64,000 nt of DNA from Leptolyngbyaceae cyanobacterium (GTDB lineage Bacteria; Cyanobacteriota; Cyanobacteriia; Phormidesmidales; Phormidesmidaceae), in assembly GCA_965263355.1 (NCBI GenBank), contig CBDHHL010000032.1, positions 1,536,001 through 1,600,000 of the forward strand, written 5' to 3'. The notes under the pieces were generated by a model. That model did not search any database, had not been told where the DNA came from, and saw only the letters and a program-made list of their open reading frames with translations. The number at the start of each line of letters is the position of its first letter. The stretch's first letter is position 1. Below, piece by piece: positions 8,770-27,675 of the stretch. The translations under genes were made by a program, and so were the position numbers.

Positions 8770-10562
8770 TCACACATACATAAACTGATTTGAATTAGTC
8801 AGGTCCAGACTGGCAGAATTTATCCCTTGAACAATACCAATCAGGTCACCGGCATAGTGGATACCAGCACCCGCAATACCATTCACTGACACATTGCTTA
8901 GAGAATAGGACACCGCACTGCCCAACAGCTGAATTCTGTCGGCAATGTCTCCTAAAAAGTCATATACATCAAAGTCTTTAATCACCGCAAAGTCAGCATT
9001 GCCATAATCGTTGTAATATACGCCTTTATTGTCACCGAGAATAAAGGTATCGCGATCGCTAAGGCTGCCGCTGATCAGAATGTCGCGTTCGCCAGTTCCC
9101 TGAAATGCATGTGCAGTGCCATTGATACGGTCGTTGCCAAGGCCACCAACAATGACATCATGGCCACTACCGCCAAGGAGATAATCGTGGCCACCACTGC
9201 CCCAAAGACGATCATTACCGCCAAAACCATGCAACACATCATTACCTGCATGACCCACCAGGGAATTTTTAGCCCCGTTACCGTAGATGCGGTCATGGCC
9301 AGAGCCACAGGCATTTTCAATTAGCGATCGCACATCGCCCTTAAACTGTAAGGCATTAAACACATGCCCCCGAGCATAGTGACCACCGCCTAGATAGGCC
9401 CGTTGGGCATTGTCACCCACATCCAAATCACTCCAATGCCCAGGTAAAAGGCTAATACTGAGATTAGTTTTGTAATTAGCAAAATTATAAGTATCAATGC
9501 CATTGCCATCCCAAATGGTACGAAAAATGCGATTCGCTCCGGGGTTACCCTGCCCCACACCATTGATCTGCCACCATAGGCATTTTCAATTAGCGATCGC
9601 ACATCGCCCTTAAACTGTAAGGCATTAAACACATGCCCCCGAGCATAGTGACCACCGCCTAGATAGGCCCGTTGGGCATTGTCACCCACATCCAAATCAC
9701 TCCAATGCCCAGGTAAAAGGCTAATACTGAGATTAGTTTTGTAATTAGCAAAATTATAAGTATCAATGCCATTGCCATCCCAAATGGTACGAAAAATGCG
9801 ATTCGCTCCGGGGTTACCCTGCCCCACACCATTGACAAACATCTGGCCGGTTGTGGGTGAAAACGTGTAGTTCGTATTGGTGGCATTGTAGTTGAAATTC
9901 GCGCCATACATTTCCTGGATAGCCCTGATGTCATACATCATCAGAGATTGAGCAAATCCATAGGTTTCATTGCCATAGCCGCCGCCATTGTCGCCAATGT
10001 AGGAGTTGTACGTCATAATTGAGAATTCCATCGAATCTCGATTGGCATTCGTGGAAACATTGCGAATGCTACCAATCCCTTCATGACCATGGGTGAGGCC
10101 AAGGGCATGGCCAATTTCGTGACCAAAGGTGTGATAAGCATAGTTACCCTTGATAGGAGTGTTATAGTTTGTTTTGTTAAACCAGATATCACCCCCTGCA
10201 ACATGGGTATGAGGCAGATAGGCATAGGCTGTGCTGGGATGGCTGGATTCTGCCATACGGATGGTTGCATGTCGGTCATTAGCGCCCGTCAGCTCAATTA
10301 GATTCAGCCCTGAAACGCTTTCATACATAGCCATCCATTCACGGGTAGCGGCTCGCTGGATGGCATTGAGACTGGAAAACGTTGCATTATGGAGGCCATT
10401 ATCGGGATAACCAGACTCGTCCTCGTAGTCATTGCGGAAGTTATTGGTAAAACTAAAGGTGATATTTTTGGATGCCCAACGTTTGTAACCGACCAAACTA
10501 TCAATGTTATTGTTGCCAGTTGCAATGTTGTTCACTGTACTCACACCGATGCCGTAAGCCAT
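8770..10562 (-). pseudogene. Serralysin-like M10 zinc metalloprotease with RTX C-terminus, frameshifted by an internal duplication (or misassembly)
   Basis: HEIGHALGLTH zinc motif, SIMTY Met-turn, TIWDGNGIDT, GGxGxD nonamers; split into ORFs 9390-10652 and 8770-9558; ATG at 10562 with GGAG upstream. Confidence 0.85.
9309..9835. repeat. 258-bp direct duplication (9309-9566 and 9578-9835, period 269)
   Basis: Copies read identical; 269 is not a multiple of 3. Confidence 0.92.
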
Positions 10563-10898
10563 TATTCGATCTCCAATCGCAGAAATAGTGGGCTTTTTCA
10601 CAAAAGAGAATGGCGATAATGGAAAATGGATATGAGAAACTAAAACACTCAAAACAGTGTTTTTCGCCTAATAAAATATCAGGCAGAAAAAATCTTAAAC
10701 CCATAGAAGTCAGCCACTATCAGCTTATGCAGAGTGATTTGACTTCCATAACCGTCTCAATATTGTGAATCTTCAAACCATGTTTTGAAGACATCTCAAG
10801 TGTGTCAAATAAAAAAACAATTTGGCAGGCTTAAAAGTCTATAAATTAGCAACAAAATTGTCAGCAAAAACATTTGTCGCCAGGGCAATAGATCATAA

Positions 10899-11008
10899 AA
10901 AGTCATACCTGACAGATGACTTTGCAGAATCTATCTAAAGCTTGGCCAACGTTATACTCAAAAAGTCAGTTCGTAAAGTCATACGGCGCTTTAAAGTCAT
11001 ATGACTTT
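10899..11008. promoter_or_regulatory. Cluster of AAAGTCAT half-sites including the perfect palindrome AAAGTCATATGACTTT
   Basis: Half-sites at 10899, 10916 (inverted), 10962, 10975 and the palindrome at 10993-11008, upstream of the M10 protease. Confidence 0.45.
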
Positions 11009-11047
11009 GCATGCAAATCATATGGGACTGGTGCAAGATTATAAACT

Positions 11048-11081
11048 AAAAAAACGCCGCTCGATTCAATCGAGCGGCGTT
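11048..11081 (-). terminator. Intrinsic terminator of the RTX gene
   Basis: AACGCCGCTCGATT-C-AATCGAGCGGCGTT inverted repeat followed by a T-run on the minus strand. Confidence 0.85.
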
Positions 11082-11158
11082 CGAAGTCAACGCTTTATCA
11101 TGTCACGACGATGCTGTAGTGGTTAAATACTGGGACATTGCCCCAAACAAGATATTGC

Positions 11159-13093
11159 CTAAGCAACAAAATTGAAGTCTGCTCCCAGCACAACATTAGT
11201 CGTGTCTTGAACAACACCAACGAGATCACCCTTGTAATAGATTGCAGTATCTTTCGCCGCTGTTCCACCAAAGTTAAAGGTCTTGTTAAGAGAATAGTCG
11301 CCAATGCCGCCGTGGGCCTGGATTTTATCCCCTTCAAGATGGTAGAAGTCCTTAATGGTGGCGTATCCAGCACCCAGGTAAAAGGCTTTTGCCGTATCAC
11401 CCAGCATAAACACATCAGCTCCATCAAGCAGGCCTTTAACCCCTGGAGTAGACCCACTGAAGTCACCGGAGAGAACATCGTACTCACCTGTGGTACCGCC
11501 ATAGCCGTTCAACTGATCATTGCCAGAACCACCGACCAGGGTATCCGAACCAGTACCTCCCAGGAGATAATCGTTACCGGCGTCACCGTTAAGGAGATCA
11601 TTGCCAGCAGCACCAAATACGGTATCGTTGCCGGACCCAGCAAATACCTGGTCATTACCCGCGCCTGTATTGATGTAGTTAACACCAGCGGTACCCGTAA
11701 TCTTGTCAGCGCCAGCCCCGGTGTAGACGTACTCAAAGTTGACGGCGGTCTCTCCAGTGAAGTTAGTCACACCTGTGACCATGTTCAGGTGATAGGCCCC
11801 ACTAAAGAAACGAACATCCAGGGTATCAATACCGGCCCCCCCGTCCATTTTGTCGACGCCCCAGCCACCATCAATATAGTCATTGCCGTCTTGACCATAG
11901 ATAGAGTCGTTGCCATTTTGACCACGTAGAACATCATTGCCAGCACCGCCTACCACGATGTCGTTGCCGGACCCAGCAAATACCTGGTCATTACCCGCGC
12001 CTGTATTGATGTAGTTAACACCAGCGGTACCCGTAATCTTGTCAGCGCCAGCCCCGGTGTAGACGTACTCAAAGTTGACGGCGGTCTCTCCAGTGAAGTT
12101 AGTCACACCTGTGACCATGTTCAGGTGATAGGCCCCACTAAAGAAACGAACATCCAGGGTATCAATACCGGCCCCCCCGTCCATTTTGTCAACGCCCCAG
12201 CCACCATCAATATAGTCATTGCCGTCTTGACCATAGATAGAGTCGTTGCCATTTTGACCACGTAGAACATCATTGCCAGCACCGCCTACCACGATGTCGT
12301 TGCCAGACCCAGCAAATACCTGGTCATTACCTGCCCCTGTATTAATGTAGTTAACACCAGCGGTGCCCGTAATCTTGTCAGCCCCCGCCCCTGTGTACAC
12401 GTACTCAAAGTTGGTAGCAGTTTCTCCAGTGAAGTTGGTCACCCCTGTAACCATGTTCAGGTGATAGGCCCCACTAAAGAAACGAACATCCAGGGTGTCA
12501 ATACCGGCCCCCCCGTCCATTTTGTCAACGCCCCAGCCACCATCAATATAGTCATTGCCGTCTTGACCATAGATAGAGTCGTTGCCGTTTTGACCGCGCA
12601 GAATATCGTTACCCGCACCCCCAAGTACTATGTCATTGCCAGACCCAGCAAATACCTGGTCGTTACCAGCCCCTGTACTGATGTAGTTAGCAGCAGCGGT
12701 GCCCGTAATCTTGTCAGCCCCCGCCCCTGTGTAAACGTTTTCAAAGTTAATGGCAGTCTCTCCTGGGTAGTTGGTCACCCCTGTAACCATGTTCAGGTGA
12801 TAGGCATTACTCCAGAAACGGACATCCAGGGTGTCAATACCGGCACCCCCGTCCATAGCATCAAGGCCAAGACCACCGTCAACATAATCATTGCCGTCGC
12901 CACCAAAAATTTTGTCGTTGCCAGTGCCACCTAAAAGGACGTCGTTACCGCCTAGGCCATATAGATTGTCATTACCGGCAAGACCTTTGATAGTATCGCT
13001 TAAGTTAGTGCCTACGAGTGACTTCCGAAAGATAAAAGGAATGCCGTTAACAGTATTGTTATCGTTGTAGTTGGTGCCGTTGATTAAAGCCAT
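11159..13093 (-). CDS. RTX / haemolysin-type Ca2+-binding repeat protein (probable type I secretion substrate)
   Basis: Many GGxGxDxL nonamers, no signal peptide, AGGAG RBS, C-terminal GADVFMLG...ATIKDF...DLVGVVQ tail. Confidence 0.92.
   Translation of the reverse strand: MALINGTNYNDNNTVNGIPFIFRKSLVGTNLSDTIKGLAGNDNLYGLGGNDVLLGGTGNDKIFGGDGNDYVDGGLGLDAMDGGAGIDTLDVRFWSNAYHLNMVTGVTNYPGETAINFENVYTGAGADKITGTAAANYISTGAGNDQVFAGSGNDIVLGGAGNDILRGQNGNDSIYGQDGNDYIDGGWGVDKMDGGAGIDTLDVRFFSGAYHLNMVTGVTNFTGETATNFEYVYTGAGADKITGTAGVNYINTGAGNDQVFAGSGNDIVVGGAGNDVLRGQNGNDSIYGQDGNDYIDGGWGVDKMDGGAGIDTLDVRFFSGAYHLNMVTGVTNFTGETAVNFEYVYTGAGADKITGTAGVNYINTGAGNDQVFAGSGNDIVVGGAGNDVLRGQNGNDSIYGQDGNDYIDGGWGVDKMDGGAGIDTLDVRFFSGAYHLNMVTGVTNFTGETAVNFEYVYTGAGADKITGTAGVNYINTGAGNDQVFAGSGNDTVFGAAGNDLLNGDAGNDYLLGGTGSDTLVGGSGNDQLNGYGGTTGEYDVLSGDFSGSTPGVKGLLDGADVFMLGDTAKAFYLGAGYATIKDFYHLEGDKIQAHGGIGDYSLNKTFNFGGTAAKDTAIYYKGDLVGVVQDTTNVVLGADFNFVA
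11624..12900 (-). repeat. About four tandem 336-bp (112-aa) units inside the RTX gene (ends approximate)
   Basis: IDTLDVRF anchor recurs at 11821, 12157, 12493, 12829. Confidence 0.9.
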
Positions 13094-13519
13094 GAGGATT
13101 CTCCTGAACTGTATAGACTTATAAGATTTGGAAAGAGAGTGTTAGCTCTGTGTGAATGCTGTTTTCTTTCCGTTCAGTGGTCACTCATGGAGTCAAACTG
13201 GGTTTTATGCAAAAAGAATGGTTTTTTTGAAAATAGTTTTTTCGTGAATGGGTAGATTCTTTATGTAATAGGCTTTTGAAGCAGTTTGAATTGGATTTGA
13301 ATTAATTATTTTTGGTGAGTGGTGAGTACGGACATAAAGAGTCAGCCACCGGGGTTTAAAGCCCAGACCCTTGCTGACGACTGATTTCTGACCTCTGACT
13401 GCGGAAAAATATTGCAGTTTGCATAAAAATTGATCGAATTTTACGAGTTATCGGGAAACGGGCTGATAATTTTGAGAGGGTTGCATGGATACCGTTATTG
13501 CATTTCACCAAAATCGCTT

Positions 13520-14413
13520 ATGGAATCACAGTTTGGGCAACTTATTCTGGTTCTCCAGAGACAATCAACAGGGACGGACGAGGAGGCATTTTCTAAACTG
13601 GTTGATATGATGATGCGATCGCGAAAAGTGGGGCGTCCTCCCCGAGGCCAACCGCTGACGGGTATCTATAAGGAAATTTGCGATCATATCCGACAACAAT
13701 TGATCCAGTTGCTACAGGACTGTCTGGATAAAGGGCTGCTACAGTCCGACCTCAGCTGGGGGTATCAACTCCGGGCCCAGGCCACCCAGAATGCCTTAAC
13801 TGATTCTCTACTTAAGGGATTAGCCCTTGAAGCCCAACGTCAGCCCCACCCTAGTCGTTTGCGACAGCATGCCCTAATGCAGTTGGTAGAGGCGATTCGC
13901 GCCTGTGGTCGTCTGGCTCGACCCCATCGGGGTAAGTTTACACCGTCGTTTTATACTTTCCTGTATGAGGAGGCCGTTAATCGTACCCTGGTGTACGTTT
14001 GCCAAAAGATCGATACCTATGACCCCAACCGGGGACAGTCTCAAAAGTTTATGAACTGGGTGAATTTTCGTCTGGACCGGATGGTGATTGAATGTCGTCG
14101 TCAGTTTAGCGATCGCGATACCCAGGAACTACCCAACCTCAACGATTTGGAACGGTTGTCCCAGCCAGAACCCCAATCGTCCCTGGCCAATGATGTCCGG
14201 GATTATATTATCGCTGACCCCGATGATGTATTTAAGTCTACCCATATTCGTAAGCGTCCCGATGCCAGCTTTCAAGCGATTGCCCTCGCTCGATTTGCTG
14301 ACCAAAGTTGGGAAGAGATTTCGGCTCAGTTTGATATTAAAATTCCCACACTAAGTAGTTTCTTTCAGCGTTGTTGCGATAAGTTCTCGGATCGGTTTCA
14401 AAATCTTCTTTAA
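13520..14413 (+). CDS. Sigma-70-family (ECF-like) factor with extended N-terminus
   Basis: Region-2-like YEEAVNRTLVYVCQKIDTYDP..FMNWVNFRL; region-4-like HTH SWEEISAQFDIKIPTLSSFFQRC; first ATG at 13520. Confidence 0.8.
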   Translation: MESQFGQLILVLQRQSTGTDEEAFSKLVDMMMRSRKVGRPPRGQPLTGIYKEICDHIRQQLIQLLQDCLDKGLLQSDLSWGYQLRAQATQNALTDSLLKGLALEAQRQPHPSRLRQHALMQLVEAIRACGRLARPHRGKFTPSFYTFLYEEAVNRTLVYVCQKIDTYDPNRGQSQKFMNWVNFRLDRMVIECRRQFSDRDTQELPNLNDLERLSQPEPQSSLANDVRDYIIADPDDVFKSTHIRKRPDASFQAIALARFADQSWEEISAQFDIKIPTLSSFFQRCCDKFSDRFQNLL

Positions 14414-14415
14414 GG

Positions 14416-14438
14416 TTGGTGGGCACTGCCCACCTTAC
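14416..14438. repeat. REP-like palindrome GGTGGGCA-C-TGCCCACC
   Basis: Just after the sigma stop codon; same family as 28651-28703. Confidence 0.6.
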
Positions 14439-14548
14439 GGTTTTTCCGTTCTGCCCATTGATCGTTGGGTTTTGTGCCTCTACCCAACTTACAGCCTATT
14501 CCCCATTCCCTAGTCTTATTCCCACTGTTTAGCCAGAGAGAGATAGCC

Positions 14549-15472
14549 ATGAACACCACTCTTTCAGACGTTACAATTCCCCTTACCTTAGAACCTCACC
14601 ACCAAGCGGAACAATTTCGGAAACATCAGACATCATCGCAAAAAGCAAAACAGGTTTATCTGAATACCCTCGCGATCTATGCCACTCGATTTTATCTGGA
14701 GTGTCTGGGGTATGAGGTGGATCTAACCGCTAGCGATGGTCTGAAGCCAGTGCAACAAATGCTACTGGGAACAGCGGCTCTGGCGGTGAAAGGCTATGGT
14801 CAACTGGAATGTTGTCCTGTGGTGCAGGGGGAGACGGAGTTTGCGATCGCACCCGAACTCCACCAGGACCGGCTTGGGTATATTGCGGTTCACCTGGATG
14901 ATAGCCTGCGTACAGCAACGGTCTTAGGATTTGTTACGACAGCCGCCGATCGAGTAGCCCTAACCCAGCTACAACCTATTGAAGAGCTTTCTAGTCTCCT
15001 TAGCCCCACCCTGCTTCAACAGGCAGACGAACAGATTACCCAGCTGAGCCGCTGGTTACAAAATCTGGCGGATGAGGGATGGCAGACCTTAGATAATGTT
15101 ATCAATCCACCCAGTTTTGCCTTTAGAACCCAACCTAGTCCATCAACTGAAAATGCCTTTGAGTCAACTGTTGTTGGTCGAAGCAAACAGATTAGCTTAA
15201 ACGACTGTGATATTACCCTGGCCGTAGGTCTATTACCATTATCAGAAACCCAAACTGAAATTCACGTGCGAGTTTATGCCAGTCCAGACCAATCCTATCT
15301 GCCTCCCCAGTTAACACTCAGTGTTTTAGATGCTGACAATCGATCAGTGATGCAGGCGGAAGCCAGAGCGACAGAAGCCATCCAGCTAAAATTTGCCGGT
15401 ACCGCTGACGAGCAGTTCAGCCTCAAGCTAGCCCTGCAAAATGCCAGTGTCACCGAGAGATTTGTGATTTGA
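14549..15472 (+). CDS. DUF1822-family protein
   Basis: KAKQVYLNTLAIYA, GQLECCPV, DRLGYIAV.LD...ATVLGF, LSRWLQN...GWQTL, FAFR, YLPPQLTLSVLD, FSLKL...VTERFVI. Confidence 0.8.
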   Translation: MNTTLSDVTIPLTLEPHHQAEQFRKHQTSSQKAKQVYLNTLAIYATRFYLECLGYEVDLTASDGLKPVQQMLLGTAALAVKGYGQLECCPVVQGETEFAIAPELHQDRLGYIAVHLDDSLRTATVLGFVTTAADRVALTQLQPIEELSSLLSPTLLQQADEQITQLSRWLQNLADEGWQTLDNVINPPSFAFRTQPSPSTENAFESTVVGRSKQISLNDCDITLAVGLLPLSETQTEIHVRVYASPDQSYLPPQLTLSVLDADNRSVMQAEARATEAIQLKFAGTADEQFSLKLALQNASVTERFVI

Positions 15473-15480
15473 TCAAAGCC

Positions 15481-17853
15481 ATGGCTGAAAAACTCGTCAC
15501 ATTAAAACTGGAGGGAGAGTTAGAAACCAACGGGTTTCATGTGCTCCTGGAGATTGGTGAAGATGGCTCCCGCCCCGATGTTGAGGCGATTGGGACGCTG
15601 CCCGCCAATCCTGATCTGCGACAACAGCTGCACCAGTGGCAAGAGAGCTATCGTTTGCTCAATGTCCCCTCCCGGATTCAACCCCTGGAAATTACCTATG
15701 TGGGCTCATTGCACACCGTTAACACCTGTCAACAGGCGGCGAACACCTTAGGGGAACAATTCAAAGCGTGGCTGTTGTCGTCTACATTTACAACCATTGA
15801 TCAGCCCCTACGGGAGGAGCTGAGGGCAACAGACACTGTGCGTCTGGTAATTCGGACGACCAATACTGATTTACACCATCTGCCCTGGCACCTGTGGGAT
15901 ATGGTGGATCGCTACCCCCAGATTGAAATTGCCCTGGGTACACCCACCCTTAAACGGTTGGCAAAATCTGAAACCCAGCATTCAACCGTCAAAATTTTAG
16001 CGATTTTAGGCGATAGTAGCGGCATTGATGTTGCTGCTGACCGTCAGCTGCTAGCAGCCATTCCCGGTGCTGATGTCACCTTTTTGGTAGAGCCTCAACG
16101 GCAACAGATTACCGAGCAGCTCTGGGAGCAACCCTGGGATATCCTCTTTTTTGCCGGTCATGGCCGTACGGAACTAGGGGCGGGTAAGATCTTTATCAAC
16201 CCGCAGGAAAGCCTTACCCTAGAAGAACTTAAGTATGGTCTGCGAGAGGCTGTGAGGCAGGGGTTACAGCTAGCCATTTTCAATGCCTGTGACGGTCTGG
16301 GCTTGGCATCGGCTTTAGCTCCCCTGGGGCTACCACAAATGATATTAATGCGAGAGCCAGTTCCTGACCAGGTGGCCCAAACATTTCTCAAATATTTTTT
16401 GGATGCCTATGTGACTGGTGCCTCCCTCTACCTGGCGGCTCGACAGGCAAGAGAGCGACTCCAGGGATTAGAAGATCGATTTCCCTGTGCCAGTTGGTTA
16501 CCGATTATCTATCAGGTCAATCCGACCTTACCCAAACGCTGGCCCCAGTTGACCATAGCCGCTGATACATTGCCCTCATATCGATCTGCGCCAGGGCCAA
16601 TGGTGGGTGGTCTTTCCTTGATGTCTTGGTTGGCGATTAGTGCAGTTGTCACCGCCAGTCTCGGCATCCTCCGCTGGACCGGGTTTTTACAACGTTCAGA
16701 ATTAGCCGCCTACGATCGGCTGATGCGCCAACGGCCTGCCCAAGTGGTCGATCAGGGAGACCAACGTCTGTTGATTGTGGAGGCGACGGAAGAGGATATT
16801 AATACCTATGGCTATCCCTTGCCCGACAATGTGTTGGCCCAGGCCATCGACCAGCTGGTGCCCTACAATCCTAGAATCATTGGTCTAGATATCTTTCGGC
16901 CTCAGATGGCTCCATCTACACCCCTAGGACAACGTCTGCAGCAAAACCCGGTGGTGGCGCTTTGTAGCTTTGGCCAGTCGGGTAATGCTAATCAGCCAGG
17001 GATTGCCCCCCCCTCAGAGTTACCTGAAGACCAGGTGGGGTTTAGCAATGTGGTTATCGATGCTGATGGTGTGCTGCGACGACAGCTTTTGTTTGCTCAA
17101 CCTGCTAGCGCTAGTCCCTGTACCAGCCATACATCCCTGGGGATGCTGATGGCGCTGCATTATCTAGAGGCCGATGGCATCCAGCTCGAAACCATTAATG
17201 ATCAGCGTTTGCGTCTGGGGGCGACCACCCTGGTACCCCTGGCCTCTGACAGCGGTGGCTACCAGGGTATTGATGACCGTGGGTTTCAAATGTTGCTTAG
17301 ATATGCACCCACTGAGCAAATTGCCCAGCGGATAACTCTCTCGCAGTTGCTCTCAGGGGAGACTGTTCTGGATAGTTTAGAGACCCAGGCCGTGCTGATT
17401 GGCATGAGTGCCCCCACGTCAAATCCCACGGATTATTTTGTGACTCCCGTCAACTCTGGAAATCCAAAGGGATTGCCGGGAGTTGATATTCATGCCCAAA
17501 CTATTCACTATTTGTTGGCCGCTGCCCTGGATCGTCACCCTGTGCTCACCAGTGTGCCTGCCTGGGGCGGCTGGCTGTGGATTGTCACCTGGGCTTTGAT
17601 TGGCTCTGGGCTAACGGTTAAACGCTGTCCATGGATGATTTGGTTATTGGGCCTGGGGCTGGCCACACTGGTGCTGTATGGTGTCGGCTGGCTGCTATTT
17701 GGTATGGGGCTGTGGGTGCCTTTGGTGCCGGGGGCCTTAGCCTTAGCCGGGGGCAGTGGTGGTGGTGCGATCGCACAAGCCCTGACCAATCAATTCACAT
17801 ACGTGTCTAAATCTAAACAACTCCTGAAAGATCAGGCCATTAACCGTAGTTAA
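15481..17853 (+). CDS. Membrane protein with cytoplasmic CHAT (caspase-like) protease domain and extracytoplasmic CHASE2 sensor domain
   Basis: LPWHLW, LFFAGHG (His), IFNACDG (Cys), MREPVPD; TM helix; then AYDRLMR, IGLDIFR, DADGVLRR, PGVDIHAQ and three C-terminal TM helices. Confidence 0.88.
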   Translation: MAEKLVTLKLEGELETNGFHVLLEIGEDGSRPDVEAIGTLPANPDLRQQLHQWQESYRLLNVPSRIQPLEITYVGSLHTVNTCQQAANTLGEQFKAWLLSSTFTTIDQPLREELRATDTVRLVIRTTNTDLHHLPWHLWDMVDRYPQIEIALGTPTLKRLAKSETQHSTVKILAILGDSSGIDVAADRQLLAAIPGADVTFLVEPQRQQITEQLWEQPWDILFFAGHGRTELGAGKIFINPQESLTLEELKYGLREAVRQGLQLAIFNACDGLGLASALAPLGLPQMILMREPVPDQVAQTFLKYFLDAYVTGASLYLAARQARERLQGLEDRFPCASWLPIIYQVNPTLPKRWPQLTIAADTLPSYRSAPGPMVGGLSLMSWLAISAVVTASLGILRWTGFLQRSELAAYDRLMRQRPAQVVDQGDQRLLIVEATEEDINTYGYPLPDNVLAQAIDQLVPYNPRIIGLDIFRPQMAPSTPLGQRLQQNPVVALCSFGQSGNANQPGIAPPSELPEDQVGFSNVVIDADGVLRRQLLFAQPASASPCTSHTSLGMLMALHYLEADGIQLETINDQRLRLGATTLVPLASDSGGYQGIDDRGFQMLLRYAPTEQIAQRITLSQLLSGETVLDSLETQAVLIGMSAPTSNPTDYFVTPVNSGNPKGLPGVDIHAQTIHYLLAAALDRHPVLTSVPAWGGWLWIVTWALIGSGLTVKRCPWMIWLLGLGLATLVLYGVGWLLFGMGLWVPLVPGALALAGGSGGGAIAQALTNQFTYVSKSKQLLKDQAINRS

Positions 17854-17880
17854 AACCTATACACACAGGGAATCAATCCG

Positions 17881-18714
17881 ATGTCGCGACTATCGTATCT
17901 AATGAGCGCCCTATTCATCAGTCCCCTGACCGTACTGGGTATGGGCCAGCCGGGATTGACCCAAGCGTTGGCGCAGTCTCAGCTATTGGTGGCCCTCCAG
18001 TACAATCCGCCCAATCGAGGTGCACCGGGCAGTACCTGGAATGCTGGCAGTCGTACGGGTCCCTGTGGTGACCTAACAGCGGTACAGCCGACAAAAACCA
18101 ATTGGGGAGAAACCCTCAAGTCACACCCCACCTTTGGTATCTATGTGGCTGAACCAGCAACAAATCTTATCTTTGAGCTGAGGAATGAGCGATCGCAAGA
18201 GATCGTTCACAGCGTCACCTTTGCACAAGTAACAGGACCAGGCATTAGTCTCTATACCCTGCCAGACTCAGTGCCAGCACTAGAACCCAACCAATATTAC
18301 CGCTGGCAGGTCAGCCTCGACTGTGAACAATTTAATACAGCCAATATCCAATACGACGGTGACAAACAAGTCGGCGGCATGGTGATGCGTCAGCTGGCCA
18401 ACGATGAACTACAGGCCCAACTGGCAACGGTTCCAGACACAGACAAACCAGCACTGCTGGCTGCCCATGGGCTATGGTACGACATGGTTCATGTCTTAAT
18501 GGTGCAACACCTGGAACAATCCACCACCGAAACGGAGACTGTAGAGCCATGGATGGAGACATGGAAAAACAACTGGCAAGCTATTGTGAGCCACCCCATG
18601 GTGCAGCTTACCAATTTGATGGATGCGGTGCCGATTGATTGTTGTCTGGCCGCTGACTGTCCTAGCGCCACGTCAAGTGATACCCGCCGTATTGAATTAT
18701 TGAATTCTCTCTAA
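17881..18714 (+). CDS. DUF928-family exported protein
   Basis: Signal-like N-terminus; PPNRGAPG...AGSR.GPC, GETLKSHPTF.IYV, LEPNQYYRW, AAHGLWYD. Confidence 0.82.
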   Translation: MSRLSYLMSALFISPLTVLGMGQPGLTQALAQSQLLVALQYNPPNRGAPGSTWNAGSRTGPCGDLTAVQPTKTNWGETLKSHPTFGIYVAEPATNLIFELRNERSQEIVHSVTFAQVTGPGISLYTLPDSVPALEPNQYYRWQVSLDCEQFNTANIQYDGDKQVGGMVMRQLANDELQAQLATVPDTDKPALLAAHGLWYDMVHVLMVQHLEQSTTETETVEPWMETWKNNWQAIVSHPMVQLTNLMDAVPIDCCLAADCPSATSSDTRRIELLNSL

Positions 18715-18747
18715 GCCCCCTCGCCATTGTTAATGGAGTTCCTTCCC

Positions 18748-21700
18748 ATGTTGTCAGCTGCCCTCCTGGCCATTAGTCTCCCTCAGTCCCCCTTGCCTGC
18801 TCAGATATCTGCTCAACCACTCCCGGCTATTGCCATGTCTCCATCCGAGCAACCGGTGTTTAGCAATGGGGCTCAACCAGAGGTCTTGCTGGCACAGTCA
18901 ATTACACCGGCAGATGCAGGCACCGTTGTTACCCCTACGGACAATCAAATCGAGATTACTGGGGGACAGTTTTCAGGGGATGGCGCTAATCTATTCCATA
19001 GTTTTGAACAGTTTGGATTGAGCCAGCAGCAAACGGCTAATTTTATCGCTAATCCCCAAGTACACAATGTACTAGGTCGAGTGCAGGGGGGAGATGCGTC
19101 CTATATCGATGGCCGCTTGCAGGTAACTAACAGCGATGCCAATCTGTTTTTGATTAATCCAGCTGGGATTCTCTTTGGGGAAAACGCCAGTCTAGATTTA
19201 AATGGAAGTTTTACCGCTGCTACGGCAGATCGGCTGGGCTTTGATGGTGGCTGGTTGGATGTGTTTGACTCCATTGACTATGGACAGCTAGGGGGAGACC
19301 CCAGTCAGTTTTCATTTAGTGCAGCCCAACCTGGCAGTGTGGTGAATCTAGGGGATTTAGCCGTTGATGCAAACCAAAATTTGACCCTCCTCGGGGGGAC
19401 TGTGGTGAATGTAGGCAGTGTATCGGCGGCGAGTGGACGCATCACCCTGGCTGCGGTAAATGGCCAGCAGACAGTCACCCTGGGCTCAACGGATGGTCTA
19501 CTGACCATGGAGTTAGCGCCCCTAGCCATTGATCGAGACCTTTCTATTTTATCGTTGCCAGACCTCCTCACAGGGGGCAGTGTCAGCAACAGTAGTGCGT
19601 TAGCAGTAGCGGCTGATGGCACCGTGCTGCTACAGGGTGTGACCATTCCAGAGAATAGTGGAACAACTGCTGTTGCCGGTACCCTTGATGTGACAGGGCA
19701 GGTGGGGGGAGACATTAATCTGCTAGGTGATCGCGTTGCCCTGCTTGGGGCTGATCTGGCTGCGTCTGGCCTAGCAGGTGGGGGCACAACCCGCATTGGT
19801 GGAGGCTATCAGGGCAATGACCCTATCCCTAACGCGGATCTCACCTATGTCGATGCAGATACTACTCTAGATATCAGCGGTGGAGACACTGGTGATGGTG
19901 GTCTTGCCGTCGTGTGGGCCGATGGTCTGACTAGTTTTTATGGCGATGTTGATGCTAGCGGCGGTAGCCAATTTGGAGACGGTGGATTTGTGGAAATCTC
20001 TGGAAAAGACAGTTTAGTCTTTGATGGCACGATTGATTTGCAGTCAGCGTCTGGTGAAATGGGGCAATTGTTGCTAGATCCAAATAGTGTTGTGATTGGG
20101 GATGTTGGTACCGATGACAGCCAGCTTGACAACAACGTTATTGACTTGCTAGAAGGAGGCGTTACATCATTTATATCCGCTGGTAAAGTAGCTGAGATTT
20201 TGAATGGTGGGGGAGGCGTCACCATCAATGCCACTAATGATATTCGTATTGATTCGTTTATCAACGGGTTGAGCAATGACAATGTTTCTGACTTGAGATT
20301 TAGCGCTGGACAAATTGAACTGAACAATTCAATTTCCCTGAGGGGAGGCGACGTAGTTTTTAGTGGTCCTGTGCTCCTTAATAAGACCAGCGGTAGTGTC
20401 AGTGTCTCCACAGCTGGCGATGTTATTTTCGAAAATACTCTGGACTCCAATAACGATGGGACGTCTAGAAATCTTGAGATAAATGCAGAAGAAAATGTGG
20501 TGTTTGGTGGTGCAATTGGCAGTTTAGAAGCACCAAATTTCCTGCGGGTTAGAGCCACAAATGTCTCGTTGTTAGATTATTTAGGCGATGACCTGGACAT
20601 AAGGGCCAGGGGAGATTTAACCTTCGAACCCCAACAAAATGTCGTGTTGGGGGGGACTATTCGGCTTGAGGCCGACAACAACTTGAACATTTCGACATCG
20701 AATACCTTAGATCTCTCGGGTGTGGAACTTACCGCTAGTCCATTTCAAAGTGATGGTAGCCTCACTATTCAGGCCCCATCCTTAACAATTACCAATTCCA
20801 GTGAGATTAATTCCGGTGGTACATTGACATTAGAGTCGCAAAGCCTCAGCAGCGCTGACAGTCAAATCGAGTCTAGAGGTGATTTGATTTTACAAGGGGT
20901 AAACGGCATGGGTTTTCCAACTATTATGCTCTCTAATAGTTCGTTAACGACTGACGAAACCTTAAGAGTGCATGGGTCTGCAACGTCTGCGGCTGGAAAT
21001 ATAGACGTGATAGGTAGTCTGCTGAGAACCGGTGGCGACTTAGAGCTACTGGGGCAGTCTGTTTCGGTAACCCCTGGTAGTGAGATTAAGGCGGATGCTA
21101 ATGTTGCCATCGTGGCGGCGTCCGGAATCGTGACAATAGCAGATGCAGCGATGCAACCAACTGTGGTAGAAGCTGGCAGTGAATTGAATCTGGAAGGCGA
21201 CACCCAGATCATTATTCAGGCTCTTAGTGCACCTCAATCGGTATTGCGTAGCGGTAGCAATTTAAGTCTGTTGAGTTCGGGTAATATTACCGCCAATGGC
21301 CGATTTGCCAGTGGTGGTGATTTTACGGCGGGTCCGGGCAGTTTGTTGTTTATGCCCATTGACGATGGAGGAATTATTAGCTCCGTTGGCGATGTTAGCT
21401 TCGATGAGTATATGGGAGCATCCCTAAAAATAGAAGCGGGAGGAAATATTACAGGGGGCAATGTTACTATTATTGATCCAGATACGTCTTTATCGGGTAC
21501 AGATCCAGACATTGCTTTGTTAAGTAACGGGCCTGCTGTGGTGTTAAGGGCTGGAATAATACCCCAGGAGAATTTACCCCCCAGCGCTAGCGAATTTCAG
21601 AATACACCCACACTTAACCCTGGAGATACTGTTAATAAAGCAGGAACGGTTTTCGCCACATCAGCGCCTACCACCGGCAATATTTCAGTAGGAACAATTG

Positions 21701-22698
21701 TGACAGATGCTGAAACCGATGAAGTGGGCACCGTTCTTTTAGCGGCGACTGGCGAGATTACAACAGGCGACATCACTACCGATGGCGAAGGTGGATCTGT
21801 AATTGTTATCGCCAACGATTCTGTGCAAACAGGAGATATCTCAGTTGCAGGGCGCGATAGCTCGGTGAACCTCGTATCTGAAACTGGCAATGTGGACGTG
21901 AATACGATTTTAAGTAGCGGTCGTGATATTCGCATTACAGCAGCGGGCACATTTCGTGCCAATGGCACGTTTGAGGTGGGCACCCTGGTAGAAAATAAAA
22001 TTGAAACCAACGATCTACCCGTTAGCCTAGCGCTTACCCGATTTGACTCCGATGGTGTGACTATTTTACACAACGGAGCTACTGAGGCTGACCCGGCTTT
22101 CAGTAATGATCGCATTCGCATTGGTGGTAATGGCGAACAGTTTGTGGTTGGACCGGAGGTGATTGGCAAGATTGATCCTAATGCCGGGGAGTTTATTGAT
22201 CCAATTCAGGGTGGGGCTGATTTACGTAGAAATGAAACCTATGCCCCTAGAACACTTCCTGATGAGACCAGTGGAACAGCAGGTGGCATTACCATTGGTG
22301 GATTTGGCACCAATGGGTTTTTGTCTGTCAGTGTGCAAGACATCCCATTTGTGGATGCGGTTGAGCCGTCTGAGCCGTCCGAGCCTGTTGTGGAGACTCC
22401 TTTAACACCCACCGACAATGACCCAATTGTGATGGGTGGAGAAGTGGAAGTTCAGGCCAATGAAGAACAAGTGGATCGTCAAGCCAACACCTCTGTTTGT
22501 AATTTTGCTGATGAAACGTTGATTGCTCAGGGGTCTTTGCGTGGCGATGGCGATGAATCACCTGAAGATTCCGTAAATCCTGATGTTGAACAAATTACTC
22601 AACGTGATGCCTGTGGACAACCTGATATTGGTGACAACATTCTGGTTGTTGAGGATGCCATTGAGCCATTAGATGATGGTGCAGACTCTGAGCAATAG
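18748..22698 (+). CDS. Filamentous-haemagglutinin N-terminal (TPS) domain exoprotein, TpsA-like beta-helix
   Basis: NLFHSFEQFGL, NVLGRVQGG..SYIDG.L, NLFLINPAGILFG..ASLDLNGSF.A.TA, GGFVEISG, GQLLLDP; GGAG upstream of ATG 18748 (other starts 18727/18733). Confidence 0.88.
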   Translation: MLSAALLAISLPQSPLPAQISAQPLPAIAMSPSEQPVFSNGAQPEVLLAQSITPADAGTVVTPTDNQIEITGGQFSGDGANLFHSFEQFGLSQQQTANFIANPQVHNVLGRVQGGDASYIDGRLQVTNSDANLFLINPAGILFGENASLDLNGSFTAATADRLGFDGGWLDVFDSIDYGQLGGDPSQFSFSAAQPGSVVNLGDLAVDANQNLTLLGGTVVNVGSVSAASGRITLAAVNGQQTVTLGSTDGLLTMELAPLAIDRDLSILSLPDLLTGGSVSNSSALAVAADGTVLLQGVTIPENSGTTAVAGTLDVTGQVGGDINLLGDRVALLGADLAASGLAGGGTTRIGGGYQGNDPIPNADLTYVDADTTLDISGGDTGDGGLAVVWADGLTSFYGDVDASGGSQFGDGGFVEISGKDSLVFDGTIDLQSASGEMGQLLLDPNSVVIGDVGTDDSQLDNNVIDLLEGGVTSFISAGKVAEILNGGGGVTINATNDIRIDSFINGLSNDNVSDLRFSAGQIELNNSISLRGGDVVFSGPVLLNKTSGSVSVSTAGDVIFENTLDSNNDGTSRNLEINAEENVVFGGAIGSLEAPNFLRVRATNVSLLDYLGDDLDIRARGDLTFEPQQNVVLGGTIRLEADNNLNISTSNTLDLSGVELTASPFQSDGSLTIQAPSLTITNSSEINSGGTLTLESQSLSSADSQIESRGDLILQGVNGMGFPTIMLSNSSLTTDETLRVHGSATSAAGNIDVIGSLLRTGGDLELLGQSVSVTPGSEIKADANVAIVAASGIVTIADAAMQPTVVEAGSELNLEGDTQIIIQALSAPQSVLRSGSNLSLLSSGNITANGRFASGGDFTAGPGSLLFMPIDDGGIISSVGDVSFDEYMGASLKIEAGGNITGGNVTIIDPDTSLSGTDPDIALLSNGPAVVLRAGIIPQENLPPSASEFQNTPTLNPGDTVNKAGTVFATSAPTTGNISVGTIVTDAETDEVGTVLLAATGEITTGDITTDGEGGSVIVIANDSVQTGDISVAGRDSSVNLVSETGNVDVNTILSSGRDIRITAAGTFRANGTFEVGTLVENKIETNDLPVSLALTRFDSDGVTILHNGATEADPAFSNDRIRIGGNGEQFVVGPEVIGKIDPNAGEFIDPIQGGADLRRNETYAPRTLPDETSGTAGGITIGGFGTNGFLSVSVQDIPFVDAVEPSEPSEPVVETPLTPTDNDPIVMGGEVEVQANEEQVDRQANTSVCNFADETLIAQGSLRGDGDESPEDSVNPDVEQITQRDACGQPDIGDNILVVEDAIEPLDDGADSEQ

Positions 22699-22708
22699 GA
22701 GAAGGACT

Positions 22709-25279
22709 ATGCTGCGATCGCAACGTGCCATCTTTCAATTTCTCATTGCATTTGTGCTCGGTGTTGTCATCATTGGGGTCTCACCGACCTTAGCTGCAGA
22801 CTCAGTATCGGGACAATCGGTATCTGGGCAAGGGGTATCTCAGCAAGGGGAGCAATTTTTTCAACAAGGGATGCAACAATATCAGGCTAACCAATTGGAG
22901 GCTGCGATCGCGACGTGGCAACAAGCCCTAACCCACTATCAACGATCAGGCAATCAATCCCGTGAACTAGCCGTCTACATTCGCATCAGCGCAGCTTACC
23001 TGCGATTAGGTCGTCCGCAGCAGGCTAAAGAACAAGCCCAATGGGCACTGTCGTTAGCCAGACAATTAGAGAATATCAGGGCAGAAATTTCTGCCCTTGG
23101 TAACCTGGCCATTGCCTATAAAAACCTGGGCAACTATCCCCAATCTATCGATACCTATGAACAAGCCCTAACCCTGCTAGAACCGTTACCTGATAATGAG
23201 TCACAGCTGTTGCGACTATGGTTAAACTTGGGAAACGTCTATGAATCCTTAGGGGAATATACATCAGCCATTGATGCCTATCGTAAAAGTTTGACCATCG
23301 CCCATAGCAGTAACAGTCAAGTTAACGAAGCGACTATCTTGAACAATCTGGGAGCGGTGTATGCTCAGCTCGGTAGTACGGAAGAGGCGATTGACTATTA
23401 CAACCGAAGCCTGAGATTTACCCAACAGTTAGGGGATGCCGTTGGTTCTGGCTACATTTTAAATAACCTGGGTAACATTTACCATCAGCAAAATTTAGCT
23501 CAAGCCACTGACTACTATGAGCAAAGTTTAGCCCTCGCCCAAGAATTGGCAAACCCTGGACTGGAGGCAATTTCTCTGGGTAGCCTAGGCATGGCCTATG
23601 AAGATCGAGGAGATTACGAAGGTGCCGTAGAGCTACAGCAACGTGCGTTAGCGTTAGCCGATAGTTTAGATAATCCCGTCATTAGCGCCAGAACCTTGAA
23701 CAATTTGGGGCACACCCTGTTGAGGTCAGGACAACTACAATCAGCAGAAACGCAGCTCAGAAAGGCATTAGATGAGTTAGAGTCTCTACGACCTGGGTTA
23801 AACGATCAATATAATGTATCCCTATTCGATACTCAAATACTCACCTATAACCTGTTACAGCAAATTCTAGTAGCCCGTGGCAACATCGAAGCAGCTTTGG
23901 AAATTGCTGAACGGGGAAGGGCCAGAGCATTTGTAGAGTTGATGGCAAATCGAGCTAACAATGCTCAACTGGAGTCAGTTAGTCAGGCCCCAAGCATTAC
24001 AGAGATTCGACAAATCGCTAAGGAGCAACAGACTACCCTAGTAGAATATACCCTAGTGCCTGACGACAGTTTTAAGTTTCAAGGTAAACAACGAGGCCAG
24101 GCAGAGCGTCTATACATCTGGGTGGTACAGCCCACCGGAAAAGTTGACTTTCGAGACGTGGATCTCAAGCCACTGCAGCAGGAAAAGGGAGCGTCTATCG
24201 CGAAGTTAATTAGGACTAGTCGCGAACTCAGCGGTTTACGAGGGACCCGAGGCGATACTCGTAGTGCCCTGCGTCCAGGGGACCAGGTACGTCGCGAGGG
24301 AGAGCCCTTAGACTGGGCACCCTACGAAGTCACAGCGATTGACCCACGGGCTCAAACCGTAACCCTGAGCCATCCAGATTTTGTTTTACCCAACCCAGTT
24401 GTCCCCATCCGTGACGTTTACAAAATCAACGCGTCTGGGTTTGCCACGACCCTAAGACGCCCTCAACACTGGCAAGATTTACATCAGCTATTGATTGAAC
24501 CAATTGCAGATCTGTTACCTACAGATCCCGAAGAGCGGGTGGTGTTTATTCCCCAAGAACAGCTTTTTCTAGTACCTTTTCCAGCCCTCCAGGCCCAGGA
24601 TGACAGTTATCTAATCGACCATCACACCATTCTCACGGCCCCGGCGATTCAGATTCTAGGGTTTAGAAATCGCACTGCTCCTGACTCGTCAGCCACAGCG
24701 CCCCTGATCGTTGGCAATCCCAGTCCCATGCCCGATAAGCTACAGTCGCTACCCCATGCCGGTACAGAGGCCAGGGGGATTGCCAATATCCTAGCGACCC
24801 AACCGTTAATGGGTGAGGCAGCAACAGAAACCGCTGTCAAACAACAGCTCGCCAACGCCTCGTTGATCCATCTAGCGACCCATGGCTTTTTTAACGAAGC
24901 CAACCCGCTGCAAGGCTCCCTTGCCTTTGCCCCGACTGAGGAGCAAGATGGTTTTTTGACCGCAGCCGACATCCTTACCCAGTCGCTACAGGCCAATTTG
25001 GTGGTGCTCAGTGCCTGCGACACTGGACGGGGACAAATTACCGGCGATGGCGTAATTGGTCTATCCCGATCATTTTTAGCTGCCGGAGCCAATAATGTCA
25101 TGGTTTCTCTATGGCAGGTCCCCGACGATGCCACGGCTCAGCTCATGATCGAGTTCTATCGTCAAAGGCAGCATCTAGATAATGCTCAAGCCCTAAGGCA
25201 GGCCATGTTAACCACCCGTCAGGTACACGAAGACCCAGTAGCCTGGGCCGCCTTTACCTTAATTGGAGCCATTGAGTAA
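22709..25279 (+). CDS. Signal-peptide TPR-CHAT caspase-like protease
   Basis: Hydrophobic leader ending TLAA; about 8 TPRs (LGNLA, LNNLG); ERGRARAF; LVPFPAL; IHLATHG (His), VVLSACDTG (Cys), SLWQVPD, WAAFTLIG; AGGAGAAGGA RBS. Confidence 0.92.
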   Translation: MLRSQRAIFQFLIAFVLGVVIIGVSPTLAADSVSGQSVSGQGVSQQGEQFFQQGMQQYQANQLEAAIATWQQALTHYQRSGNQSRELAVYIRISAAYLRLGRPQQAKEQAQWALSLARQLENIRAEISALGNLAIAYKNLGNYPQSIDTYEQALTLLEPLPDNESQLLRLWLNLGNVYESLGEYTSAIDAYRKSLTIAHSSNSQVNEATILNNLGAVYAQLGSTEEAIDYYNRSLRFTQQLGDAVGSGYILNNLGNIYHQQNLAQATDYYEQSLALAQELANPGLEAISLGSLGMAYEDRGDYEGAVELQQRALALADSLDNPVISARTLNNLGHTLLRSGQLQSAETQLRKALDELESLRPGLNDQYNVSLFDTQILTYNLLQQILVARGNIEAALEIAERGRARAFVELMANRANNAQLESVSQAPSITEIRQIAKEQQTTLVEYTLVPDDSFKFQGKQRGQAERLYIWVVQPTGKVDFRDVDLKPLQQEKGASIAKLIRTSRELSGLRGTRGDTRSALRPGDQVRREGEPLDWAPYEVTAIDPRAQTVTLSHPDFVLPNPVVPIRDVYKINASGFATTLRRPQHWQDLHQLLIEPIADLLPTDPEERVVFIPQEQLFLVPFPALQAQDDSYLIDHHTILTAPAIQILGFRNRTAPDSSATAPLIVGNPSPMPDKLQSLPHAGTEARGIANILATQPLMGEAATETAVKQQLANASLIHLATHGFFNEANPLQGSLAFAPTEEQDGFLTAADILTQSLQANLVVLSACDTGRGQITGDGVIGLSRSFLAAGANNVMVSLWQVPDDATAQLMIEFYRQRQHLDNAQALRQAMLTTRQVHEDPVAWAAFTLIGAIE

Positions 25280-25557
25280 GACAACTGTTTCAATTTAAAT
25301 AATCTTGAACTGTGATTTTGAAATCAAATTGTATTAATGTGCCATTTTCTTAGGCCCATGAAGTGATACAACTGTTGCAATTCAGGTAAGCTTGGGCCAA
25401 ACTTCACTCAAGATTTGGTACCACCAAATAACGGGTTATTTCAGCCATTTCTATTAGGTTCATCTGGGGGATTTATCAGGATTATCTCAGTTTGTCTGGA
25501 TAAAGTTGTCACAGATGAAAAAATTATCTGTGCTGTTACATCTTGTGCGTTGTTCTA

Positions 25558-26952: not shown

Positions 26953-26991
26953 GTTTGCTTTGTAATCGGGTTATTGCCGGAGCCAATCACT

Positions 26992-27675
26992 ATGCCAGAG
27001 ACCTCTGCCAAAATTTTAGTCATTGAAGACGAGACCCAGCTTGCTAAGTTTGTGCAAATGGAACTCTCCTACGAGGGCTACGATGTTGCCATTGCCAACG
27101 ATGGCCTATCTGGGCTAATGGCCGCTCGCGACAATGTGCCTGATCTGATTTTGCTCGATTGGATGATGCCAGGTCTGGCAGGAGTAGAAGTGTGCCGCCG
27201 GTTGCGCAGTACTGGTGCGCAAATGCCAATTATTTTTTTGACGGCTAAGGATGATGTAGCTGACCGCGTTGCTGGGTTAGATGCCGGAGCCGATGACTAT
27301 GTCGTCAAGCCCTTTAGCATTGAGGAATTGTTAGCCCGTGTACGGGCCAACCTACGGCGTAATGATCCCCAAGAGGCAGAGACATTACAGTTTGAAACCC
27401 TCACACTGAACCGTAAAACCCGCGAAGTGTTTCGTGGTGACCGGGGGATTGAACTAACGGCTAAAGAATTTGACCTGTTGGACTATCTGATTGCCCATCC
27501 TCGGCAGGTGCTGACCCGCGACCAGATTTTAGAAAAAGTCTGGGGCTATGACTTTATGGGGGATTCCAACATTATTGAGGTATACATTCGCTATCTGCGC
27601 TTAAAACTAGAGGCAGAAGGCGAAAAGCGTTTAATCCAGACCGTACGTGGCGTAGGTTACGTGTTGCGAGAGTGA
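26992..27675 (+). CDS. OmpR-family response regulator
   Basis: IEDE, LDWMMPG, GADDYVVKPF, winged-helix VWGYDFMGDSNIIEVYIRYLR, TVRGVGY. Confidence 0.94.
   Translation: MPETSAKILVIEDETQLAKFVQMELSYEGYDVAIANDGLSGLMAARDNVPDLILLDWMMPGLAGVEVCRRLRSTGAQMPIIFLTAKDDVADRVAGLDAGADDYVVKPFSIEELLARVRANLRRNDPQEAETLQFETLTLNRKTREVFRGDRGIELTAKEFDLLDYLIAHPRQVLTRDQILEKVWGYDFMGDSNIIEVYIRYLRLKLEAEGEKRLIQTVRGVGYVLRE

Follow-up and report, generated by a model that had tools for sequence, protein, structure and literature searches.

A predicted caspase-gated sigma factor switch beside divergent RTX genes in a Leptolyngbyaceae cyanobacterium

The genome of a Leptolyngbyaceae cyanobacterium (contig CBDHHL010000032.1, positions 1,536,001–1,600,000) carries a cluster in which a sigma-like gene stands beside genes for two caspase-like (CHAT) proteases and is transcribed away from genes for RTX-repeat proteins. 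The locus raises the question of how a protease with a membrane sensor could control a sigma factor, and which genes that factor would read. Positions below are those of the whole analysed stretch of 64,000 nucleotides (nt), hereafter the window. Six co-oriented genes occupied 13520–25279 on the + strand and two divergent RTX-bearing genes 8770–13093 on the − strand, so that all eight open reading frames (ORFs) of the original prediction were present (Table 1). The + strand genes were separated by 135, 8, 27 and 12 nt, in that order, and the last two overlapped by 26 nt. Pfam agreed with the domain calls for DUF1822 (E value 7e-52), CHAT (3e-18) with CHASE2 (1e-52), DUF928 (3e-28), TPS (3e-35) and TPR with CHAT (3e-68), and RTX repeats and M10 were matched as well. 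We hypothesized, with moderate confidence, that the cluster encodes a caspase-gated sigma switch, in which the DUF1822 protein would mask the sigma factor, the CHAT-CHASE2 protease would cut DUF1822 and the freed sigma factor would read its own operon and the RTX gene.

Table 1. Features of the cluster and its surroundings in the window.
Feature	Position	Strand	Evidence
Sigma factor, extracytoplasmic function (ECF)-like, 297 residues: duplicated sigma2-like N-terminal 90 residues, then sigma2 and sigma4	13520..14413	+	AlphaFold 2 (AF2) model, structure alignment
DUF1822 protein, predicted anti-sigma factor	14549..15472	+	Pfam; structure model; co-fold with sigma factor
EACC2-like N-domain, CHAT (His227, Cys270), transmembrane (TM) segment, CHASE2, C-terminal hydrophobic helices	15481..17853	+	Pfam PF12770, PF05226; hydropathy
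DUF928 exported protein, invariant (G/A)(G/A)(S/T)R58	17881..18714	+	Pfam
TpsA/FHA-type exoprotein, 1323 residues	18727..22698	+	PF05860, TIGR01901
Signal-peptide TPR-CHAT protease (His737, Cys782)	22673..25279	+	Pfam; hydrophobic 19–37
Predicted autoregulatory promoter of sigma operon: −35 TGCATAA (13420–13426), −10 GAGT (13445–13448)	13417..13451	+	Position weight matrix (PWM) score 27.5
Predicted sigma promoter facing RTX gene: −35 TGCATAA (13211–13205), −10 GAGT (13186–13183)	13180..13214	−	PWM score 28.4
RTX-repeat protein, 644 residues, four 112-residue repeats	11159..13093	−	Pfam PF00353, E value 1e-102; 336-nt repeats
Intrinsic-terminator-like hairpin, 14 pairs and T run, between RTX and M10 genes	11052..11082	−	Strongest of 14 sites
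Serralysin-like M10 zinc metalloprotease, RTX tail; ORFs 9390–10652 and 8770–9558	8770..10562	−	Pfam Peptidase_M10/M10_C/RTX; NF035945
Exact 262-nt tandem duplication (9305–9566 = 9574–9835), frameshifts M10	9305..9835		Repeat search

Sigma factor and its predicted inhibitor

The first gene of the cluster had been called sigma-70-like. This was upheld by its fold and by family-level NCBIfam matches, though the gene itself matched no Pfam or NCBIfam family at an E value of 0.01: the NCBIfam model of the ECF factor SigK matched 50 of 67 homologues at E ≤ 1 (best 2e-9). In the AF2 model (predicted local distance difference test, pLDDT, 89), residues 90–200 aligned to region 2 of SigC (VIA-align, Z 9.2, root-mean-square deviation (rmsd) 2.6, 85 residues aligned), SigW (Z 9.1) and SigE (Z 8.7), and residues 215–297 aligned to region 4 with Z 5.5–6.8. 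A single Z of this size is middling for a helical protein; nearly all of the 50 structure-alignment rows listed were sigma factors or helix-turn-helix domains. The presence of sigma2 and sigma4 without sigma3 fits the ECF (group 4) layout, with an extra N-terminal sigma2-like copy: residues 1–90 scored as a second sigma2 in an internal-repeat comparison (median z 8.0, 80% above 3) of the 45 of 67 homologues that the script could split. Foldseek against the PDB gave no match to the sigma factor at E ≤ 0.001, and a sequence-profile search of the PDB returned nothing relevant, with no HetZ structure among the matches listed. The ATG at 13520 is the likely start, preferred because the TTG at 13430 falls within the promoter motif described below.

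The closest named relatives of the sigma factor were Leptothoe and Adonisia proteins (83–87% identity), which places the source in that group of filamentous cyanobacteria. Of 201 cyanobacterial genomes sampled, 45 matched a profile of the family, frequently with more than one copy and mostly from about profile position 99, and short forms without the N-terminal sigma2 copy were commoner than the long form. In many genomes, a short paralogue and a DUF928 gene were approximately 4.3 kb apart (e.g. G089:C16, G104:C4, G020:C8 and G017:C1). The same architecture probably extends to the short-form sigma factors.

In co-folding, the sigma factor and DUF1822 scored 0.86 and the best of three controls 0.00; among solved complexes, 116 of 157 reach the mark applied to such scores, as do 2 of 215 mismatched pairs, although these figures hold only roughly for self-built alignments. 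The runs shared at least 85% of contacts, with a partner pLDDT of at least 78. The interface placed residues 5–153 of DUF1822 on residues 110–226 and 255–297 of the sigma factor, i.e. on the sigma2 and sigma4 helices. This co-fold had been proposed as a check of the original prediction and came out in its favour: DUF1822 is predicted to bind and mask sigma2 and sigma4 as an anti-sigma factor would.

The DUF1822 model comprised a PD-(D/E)XK-like N-domain, which resembled I-Ssp6803I (Z 9.0, rmsd 3.0, 114 residues aligned) and Hjc (Z 7.8), a disordered linker and an Ig-like C-domain. The linker (residues 187–204, pLDDT < 50) contained F-x-F-R193 (codon at 15125). This Arg following aromatic-x-aromatic was kept in 71 of 72 DUF1822 sequences, the exception being half of a split gene, and apart from this motif the linker was unconserved. 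A TM-like segment was present in 2 of the 72 sequences, so DUF1822 was taken to be soluble.

Gene neighbourhoods were surveyed in the best 80 of 332 genome loci by sigma match, a set that favours close, long-form relatives; counts cover loci with enough downstream DNA, and the 10-kb flank limits those for TpsA and the outer (TPR-)CHAT protease. Downstream (3') of the sigma gene, DUF1822 was found in 69 of 71 loci, CHAT in 55 of 60 and CHAT with CHASE2 in 53 of 60. DUF928 was present in 45 of 58 loci, all 45 with CHASE2, and in none of the five loci without CHASE2. Cluster synteny is far beyond chance, and the survey, another of the checks originally proposed, recovered a conserved core of sigma, DUF1822, CHAT-CHASE2 and DUF928 genes. 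TpsA (23/52), the outer CHAT (26/52) or either one (33/52) accompanied this core in varying orientation and fusion. The gene upstream of the sigma gene was divergent in 51 of 74 loci and variable in identity, including 15 RTX proteins as well as PPC, laminin-B, CBM, S74, PrsW and housekeeping genes. Atlas searches returned same-family clusters only.

Promoter motif and candidate targets

The heptamer TGCATAA was enriched in upstream regions (36/80, against 7.5 in shuffles). GAGT started at an offset of 25 nt in 46 of 76 exact T[GA]CATAA sites and of 26 nt in 6 more, giving a −35/−10-like pair, TGCATAA-N18-GAGTnA. With a two-block PWM, 56 of 80 regions scored beyond the 99th percentile of 800 shuffles toward the sigma gene and 37 of 80 away from it, counts that are circular in being scored on the training regions. 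Between-taxa cross-validation recovered 16/16 and 18/50, compared with 4–7/16 and 1–3/50 at wrong spacing. Just two sites in the window scored above 10, one before the sigma operon and one before the RTX gene, the latter ending approximately 87 nt upstream of that gene. Assignment of the motif to the cluster sigma factor rather than to a paralogue would follow from its position and from the apparent autoregulation, and the RTX gene is predicted to be a direct target. An alternative reading, with TGCATAA as the −10 and TTACA as the −35 element, was rejected as the spacing varied from approximately 16 to 22 nt; patterns derived from it found little beyond the locus itself. A sigma-70 consensus scan stayed at chance level (21 versus 23.7).

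Where the neighbour was divergent, 34 of 51 loci had an outward site; where it was co-oriented, 0 of 23 did, and three co-oriented RTX genes carried a motif site of their own. Divergent neighbours of secreted type had an outward site in 24 of 26 cases and others in 10 of 25, although the Fisher tests ignore relatedness and 11 of the 'secreted' labels were assigned by hand. Held-out sites were intergenic in 59 of 60 cases, against 76% coding bases, and preceded RTX, PPC, signal-peptide, C39-ABC exporter, ComFB, HetP-family, DUF1822 and CHAT-CHASE2 genes. They also preceded ORFs without a Pfam match that resemble lantipeptide precursors. The output would be a small, swappable and mostly exported set of proteins, of a kind that could serve in remodelling the surface or in conflict between microbes.

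The original prediction had the sigma factor driving both divergent genes. The part concerning the RTX gene stood, since the motif faces both this gene and the sigma operon; the M10 gene, on the other hand, had no motif and lay behind the terminator-like hairpin. No private promoter was found upstream of M10 (best PWM score 6.8), and the total of 14 terminator-like sites in the window was not above shuffles. In three relatives (L005, L007, L008), M10-type genes carried the motif directly. A catalytic domain was not found in the RTX protein. The M10 gene contained the zinc motif HEIGHALGLTH, with the ATG at 10562 as its likely start; this HEXXHXXGXXH motif and the RTX C-terminus were both present, but on two ORFs in the assembly. 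Contigs of three of three public runs (two samples, one study) skipped the 262-nt duplication and none carried the duplicated form, although these runs are possibly the source of the assembly itself and contigs lose rare variants. The break in M10 is likely an assembly artefact, because the run contigs skip the duplication and the gene is in frame once the extra copy is skipped.

Further motif-bearing genes were observed in relatives. Three loci (L051, L057, L065) had arrays of small genes between DUF1822 and CHAT-CHASE2, each gene with its own motif copy; these included HetP-family (NF037966, above cut-off in the one tested), PPC-domain and RTX genes. In six loci (L044, L047, L049, L058, L066, L078), a small ComFB-like gene with its own motif lay between the sigma and DUF1822 genes (Pfam-confirmed in L058). 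ComFB reportedly acts as a receptor for c-di-NMP, and the ComFB-like genes suggest cross-talk with cyclic dinucleotide signalling. The motif-preceded divergent target was a protein of approximately 380–400 residues with a Peptidase_S74 (tail-fibre chaperone) domain in L047, L066, L075 and L078, and in L048 and L079 the motif-bearing divergent gene upstream of the sigma gene encoded an intramembrane protease of the PrsW family, which is associated with anti-sigma cleavage. In L053, motif sites approximately 6.4 and 7.4 kb upstream of the sigma gene preceded lantipeptide-precursor-like ORFs beside a C39-ABC exporter and an HlyD-like gene.

Proteases, source of the signal and alternative readings

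The His/Cys dyad of the inner CHAT domain was intact in 58 of 58 aligned sequences, that of the window included. A conserved domain of approximately 95 residues preceded it, which is EACC2-like but unscored against an EACC2 profile. In two loci (L062:12534-14306, L064:12015-14210), the inner CHAT was combined, as judged by eye, with TPR-like or phosphate-binding-protein-like sensors instead of CHASE2, and DUF928 was absent. All 45 DUF928 sequences had the Arg after (G/A)(G/A)(S/T), and 43 of the 45 had a hydrophobic segment at the N-terminus. Among 30 DUF928 loci sampled independently, 23 lay within 1.5 kb of a CHASE2 gene and 23 matched a looser form of the Arg pattern, three of these elsewhere in the protein. 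DUF928 is the likely partner of CHASE2. The ligands of CHASE2 have been called unknown (PMC10581220), and no function was assigned to DUF1822 or DUF928 in the literature found.

On the outer side, TpsA had a signal peptide and a TPS domain. Its acidic tail (window positions 22498–22614) has an Arg between the only two Cys residues of the protein (1258 and 1296), and this region could be a bait loop or docking site for TPR-CHAT; similar Cys...Arg...Cys tails were noted by eye in several relatives in which TpsA is unfused. Both dyad motifs were present in 24 of 24 outer CHAT proteins and an N-terminal hydrophobic segment in 20 of 24. TpsA was fused to TPR(-CHAT) in nine related loci. No TpsB transporter was found among the 34 window ORFs scanned; ShlB-family genes were encoded elsewhere in the genome by five of five close relatives.

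In the switch that we favour, a one-step proteolytic one, the DUF1822 N-domain would mask the ECF-like sigma factor over sigma2 and the sigma4 helix, and the Ig-like C-domain may dock on the protease. DUF928 would serve as the periplasmic input of CHASE2, and a signal passing through both would activate the cytoplasmic CHAT domain, which would cut DUF1822 at R193. The N-fragment would then have to be degraded because the cut lies outside the sigma interface, as has been proposed for Csx30 and shown for RseA. From TGCATAA-N18-GAGT, the freed sigma factor would amplify expression of the operon that encodes it and would switch on the divergent RTX gene. The weakest step is a tentative one, in which the exported TPR-CHAT protease, together with or fused to TpsA, would act earlier in the pathway and cleave either DUF928 or the tail of TpsA; that these two proteins make the signal is conceivable, if somewhat doubtful.

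Several points weigh against the switch. Cleavage, binding and transcription are predictions from sequence and structure models. The predicted cut at R193 sits outside the sigma interface, and release therefore needs a second step; the original claim that cleavage releases the sigma factor retains the invariant linker Arg and the intact CHAT dyad in its favour and has the position of the cut against it. The M10 gene is without a promoter and behind the hairpin in this genome. The exact motif had 27 genome-wide matches in 10 genomes compared with 8 for reversed-pattern controls; 9 of the 27 were at the locus, and of the 18 off-locus matches 4 preceded clearly exported proteins and 3 lay inside ORFs. 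Paralogous short sigma factors of the same genomes could read the motif. In 19 of 52 loci, the close relatives L004, L009 and L012 among them, neither TpsA nor an outer CHAT was seen in the 10-kb flank. Finally, the likeness to HetF, discussed below, is one of analogy only.

Among the alternatives, the one that survives best accepts the inside switch and treats TpsA and TPR-CHAT as cargo and its maturation protease, i.e. as output, the signal to DUF928 and CHASE2 coming from elsewhere. We regard this as plausible, if short of probable. Both genes lie within the predicted autoregulated operon without an internal promoter, the 19 loci with neither seen within 10 kb and the variation in orientation and fusion are consistent with cargo, and the independently sampled DUF928 loci had CHAT within 1.5 kb, a short window, in 4 of 30 cases and a TPS gene in 2 of 30. 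However, 33 of 52 loci keep TpsA or TPR-CHAT near, often convergent and so not co-transcribed; 0 of 60 held-out promoter sites were assigned to a TPS or outer-CHAT gene; and the invariant DUF928 Arg motif is of the kind that a clan-CD protease could cut. The outside arm that the original prediction counted as part of the module was seen, in whole or in part, in those 33 loci and not within 10 kb in the other 19, and it may be output.

The opposite extension of the favoured switch would be a two-protease envelope relay, which we consider unlikely. Here, TPR-CHAT, set off through the TpsA fibre with which it is often fused, would cut DUF928 at its invariant Arg, and the new N-terminus would be the long-sought CHASE2 ligand that leads the cytoplasmic caspase-like domain to destroy the anti-sigma factor. 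Such a relay, if real, would be the bacterial counterpart of a tethered-ligand or Spaetzle-Toll cascade, assembled from a pair of caspase-like proteases and a sigma factor with a doubled sigma2. It would also be a sister circuit to the differentiation switch of HetF, PatU, HetZ and HetP.

A distinctly unlikely alternative follows section 9 of Kaur et al. (PMC8195603), where a counter-invader system is proposed: the EACC2-caspase would cleave itself, and DUF1822 would be an uncut adaptor bridging protease and sigma factor, or a sigma chaperone. The predicted cut indeed leaves the sigma-binding domain unsplit, but an invariant aromatic-x-aromatic-Arg within an otherwise unconserved disordered linker argues for cleavage, and a sigma factor covered at sigma2 and the sigma4 helix should be inactive. 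Most improbable is a mainly DNA-acting DUF1822, inactivated by cleavage like LexA, whose nuclease-like N-domain (I-Ssp6803I, Hjc) would sit on an AT-rich pseudo-palindrome upstream of the −35 element: a conserved TTACAnAAnTTAATnTTT box does lie upstream of many motif sites, but it is degenerate in the window, the overlap of back-to-back promoters explains part of the symmetry, and it is this N-domain that is predicted to bind the sigma factor.

Downstream of the cluster, a kinase/regulator pair (25543–27675) was considered as a further member and set aside as lineage context, not being seen there in distant loci and having no motif site; in the close relatives L004, L009 and L012 such a pair lay 3' of DUF928, as judged by length and cluster. 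At 28732–30262 on the − strand, a short RTX ORF and the ORF of a CAP-domain protein whose tail consists of PTPV repeats are possibly a single frameshifted gene; the region had no promoter motif, and the GSGIG-repeat ORFs on its opposite strand were regarded as shadows. A GAF-PAS-HisKA protein at 31844–33172 (− strand) had no HATPase match at an E value of 1e-8 and was overlapped by an ORF at 31441–31872, possibly owing to another frameshift.

Comparison with known systems

The original prediction stated that the module was uncharacterized. This holds for experiments, as no experimental study of the cluster was found in the open-access literature searched; the core, however, was described in silico in 2021 (Kaur, Iyer, Burroughs and Aravind, eLife; PMC8195603). 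That computational paper reports an EACC2-caspase with a TM segment and CHASE2 beside an ECF sigma factor and DUF1822, and its supplement contains a matching five-gene operon ending in a TPR-caspase. It proposes activation by autopeptidase activity and calls DUF1822 a TPR protein, an assignment that our structure model, which is without TPR, did not support. Its source data place DUF1822-labelled proteins with varied N-termini beside EACC2-caspase genes, and because the N-termini vary, the constant part of DUF1822 may be the one that docks on the protease. The present cluster shares with these systems the order of N-domain, caspase, TM segment and CHASE2 adjoining an ECF sigma factor and DUF1822. 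Of four features of the EACC2 class it has three (dyad, variable sensor, sigma and DUF1822 neighbours), the EACC2 domain being unscored. In the parts of that paper covered here, there is no mention of an anti-sigma function, a cut site, a promoter or a regulon, nor of the TpsA arm or the duplicated sigma2.

Type III-E CASP systems (Csx29/Csx30/CASP-sigma) likewise combine a CHAT protease, an anti-sigma N-domain on the sigma factor and an autoregulated ECF sigma factor; the Csx30 N-domain binds the sigma factor, the cut is C-terminal and instability of the fragment has been proposed (PMC10028731). The trigger there is Cas7-11 with RNA, whereas here it would be a membrane CHASE2 sensor. No Cas family was found among the 34 window ORFs scanned, and the Csx29 model scored 37.5 against a cut-off of 300. 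DegS/RseP-RseA-sigmaE and PrsW/RasP-RsiW-sigmaW also carry an envelope signal to an ECF sigma factor through regulated proteolysis (PMC10028731). They differ in that the predicted anti-sigma factor here is soluble and the receptor itself bears a cytoplasmic clan-CD cysteine protease. In both pathways the remaining anti-sigma fragment is then degraded.

In Anabaena, HetZ is an ECF sigma factor, PatU3 a potential anti-sigma factor and HetP an enhancer (PMC13342950), and HetF cuts PatU3 between R117 and S118 (PMC9457339). Of 16 PatU proteins, 15 retained the cut-site Arg, at position 117 in two 258-residue forms and at approximately 190 in full-length forms. By analogy, both sets would consist of an atypical ECF sigma factor, an inhibitor encoded directly 3' and a membrane CHAT protease; PatU and DUF1822 share a similar length, an Arg at approximately 190 and a beta-rich C-terminus, and HetP-family genes carry the motif of this sigma factor in the three array-bearing loci. 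HetF, however, is CHAT-TM-TPR, whereas the present protease has a CHASE2 sensor and is encoded within the same operon, and the HetZ promoter is TCCGGA-N16-17-TGNA as opposed to TGCATAA-N18-GAGT. Homology of the sigma factor to HetZ was not supported: there was no NF037963 match, its profile found no HetZ and hhalign gave an E value of 0.17 against 21 HetZ proteins (shallow alignments, which can miss remote homology). Nor was DUF1822 supported as a PatU homologue, with E values of 0.29–0.37 against 16 PatU proteins (shallow alignments) and a C-domain that matched no better than reversed or unrelated controls; the same non-significant profile alignment placed R193 on the PatU Arg. The inner CHAT scored 20 with the HetF model NF045509 (cut-off 1200). 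The HetF likeness is held to be analogy only because DUF1822 did not match PatU significantly and the sigma factor is not HetZ-like in sequence.

The favoured switch would turn a catalogue entry into a testable pathway, with an anti-sigma interface, R193, the catalytic cysteine of each protease, a promoter and a putative partner for CHASE2. If it is true, secreted proteins of filamentous cyanobacteria would be controlled by a family of sigma switches that are gated by caspases and need no kinase, in parallel to HetF/PatU3/HetZ, and the set of receptor-protease, anti-sigma factor, sigma factor and promoter would be a compact orthogonal module for synthetic biology. As predicted, the cluster works like HetZ/PatU3/HetF and like CASP, and by the sequence tests it belongs to neither.

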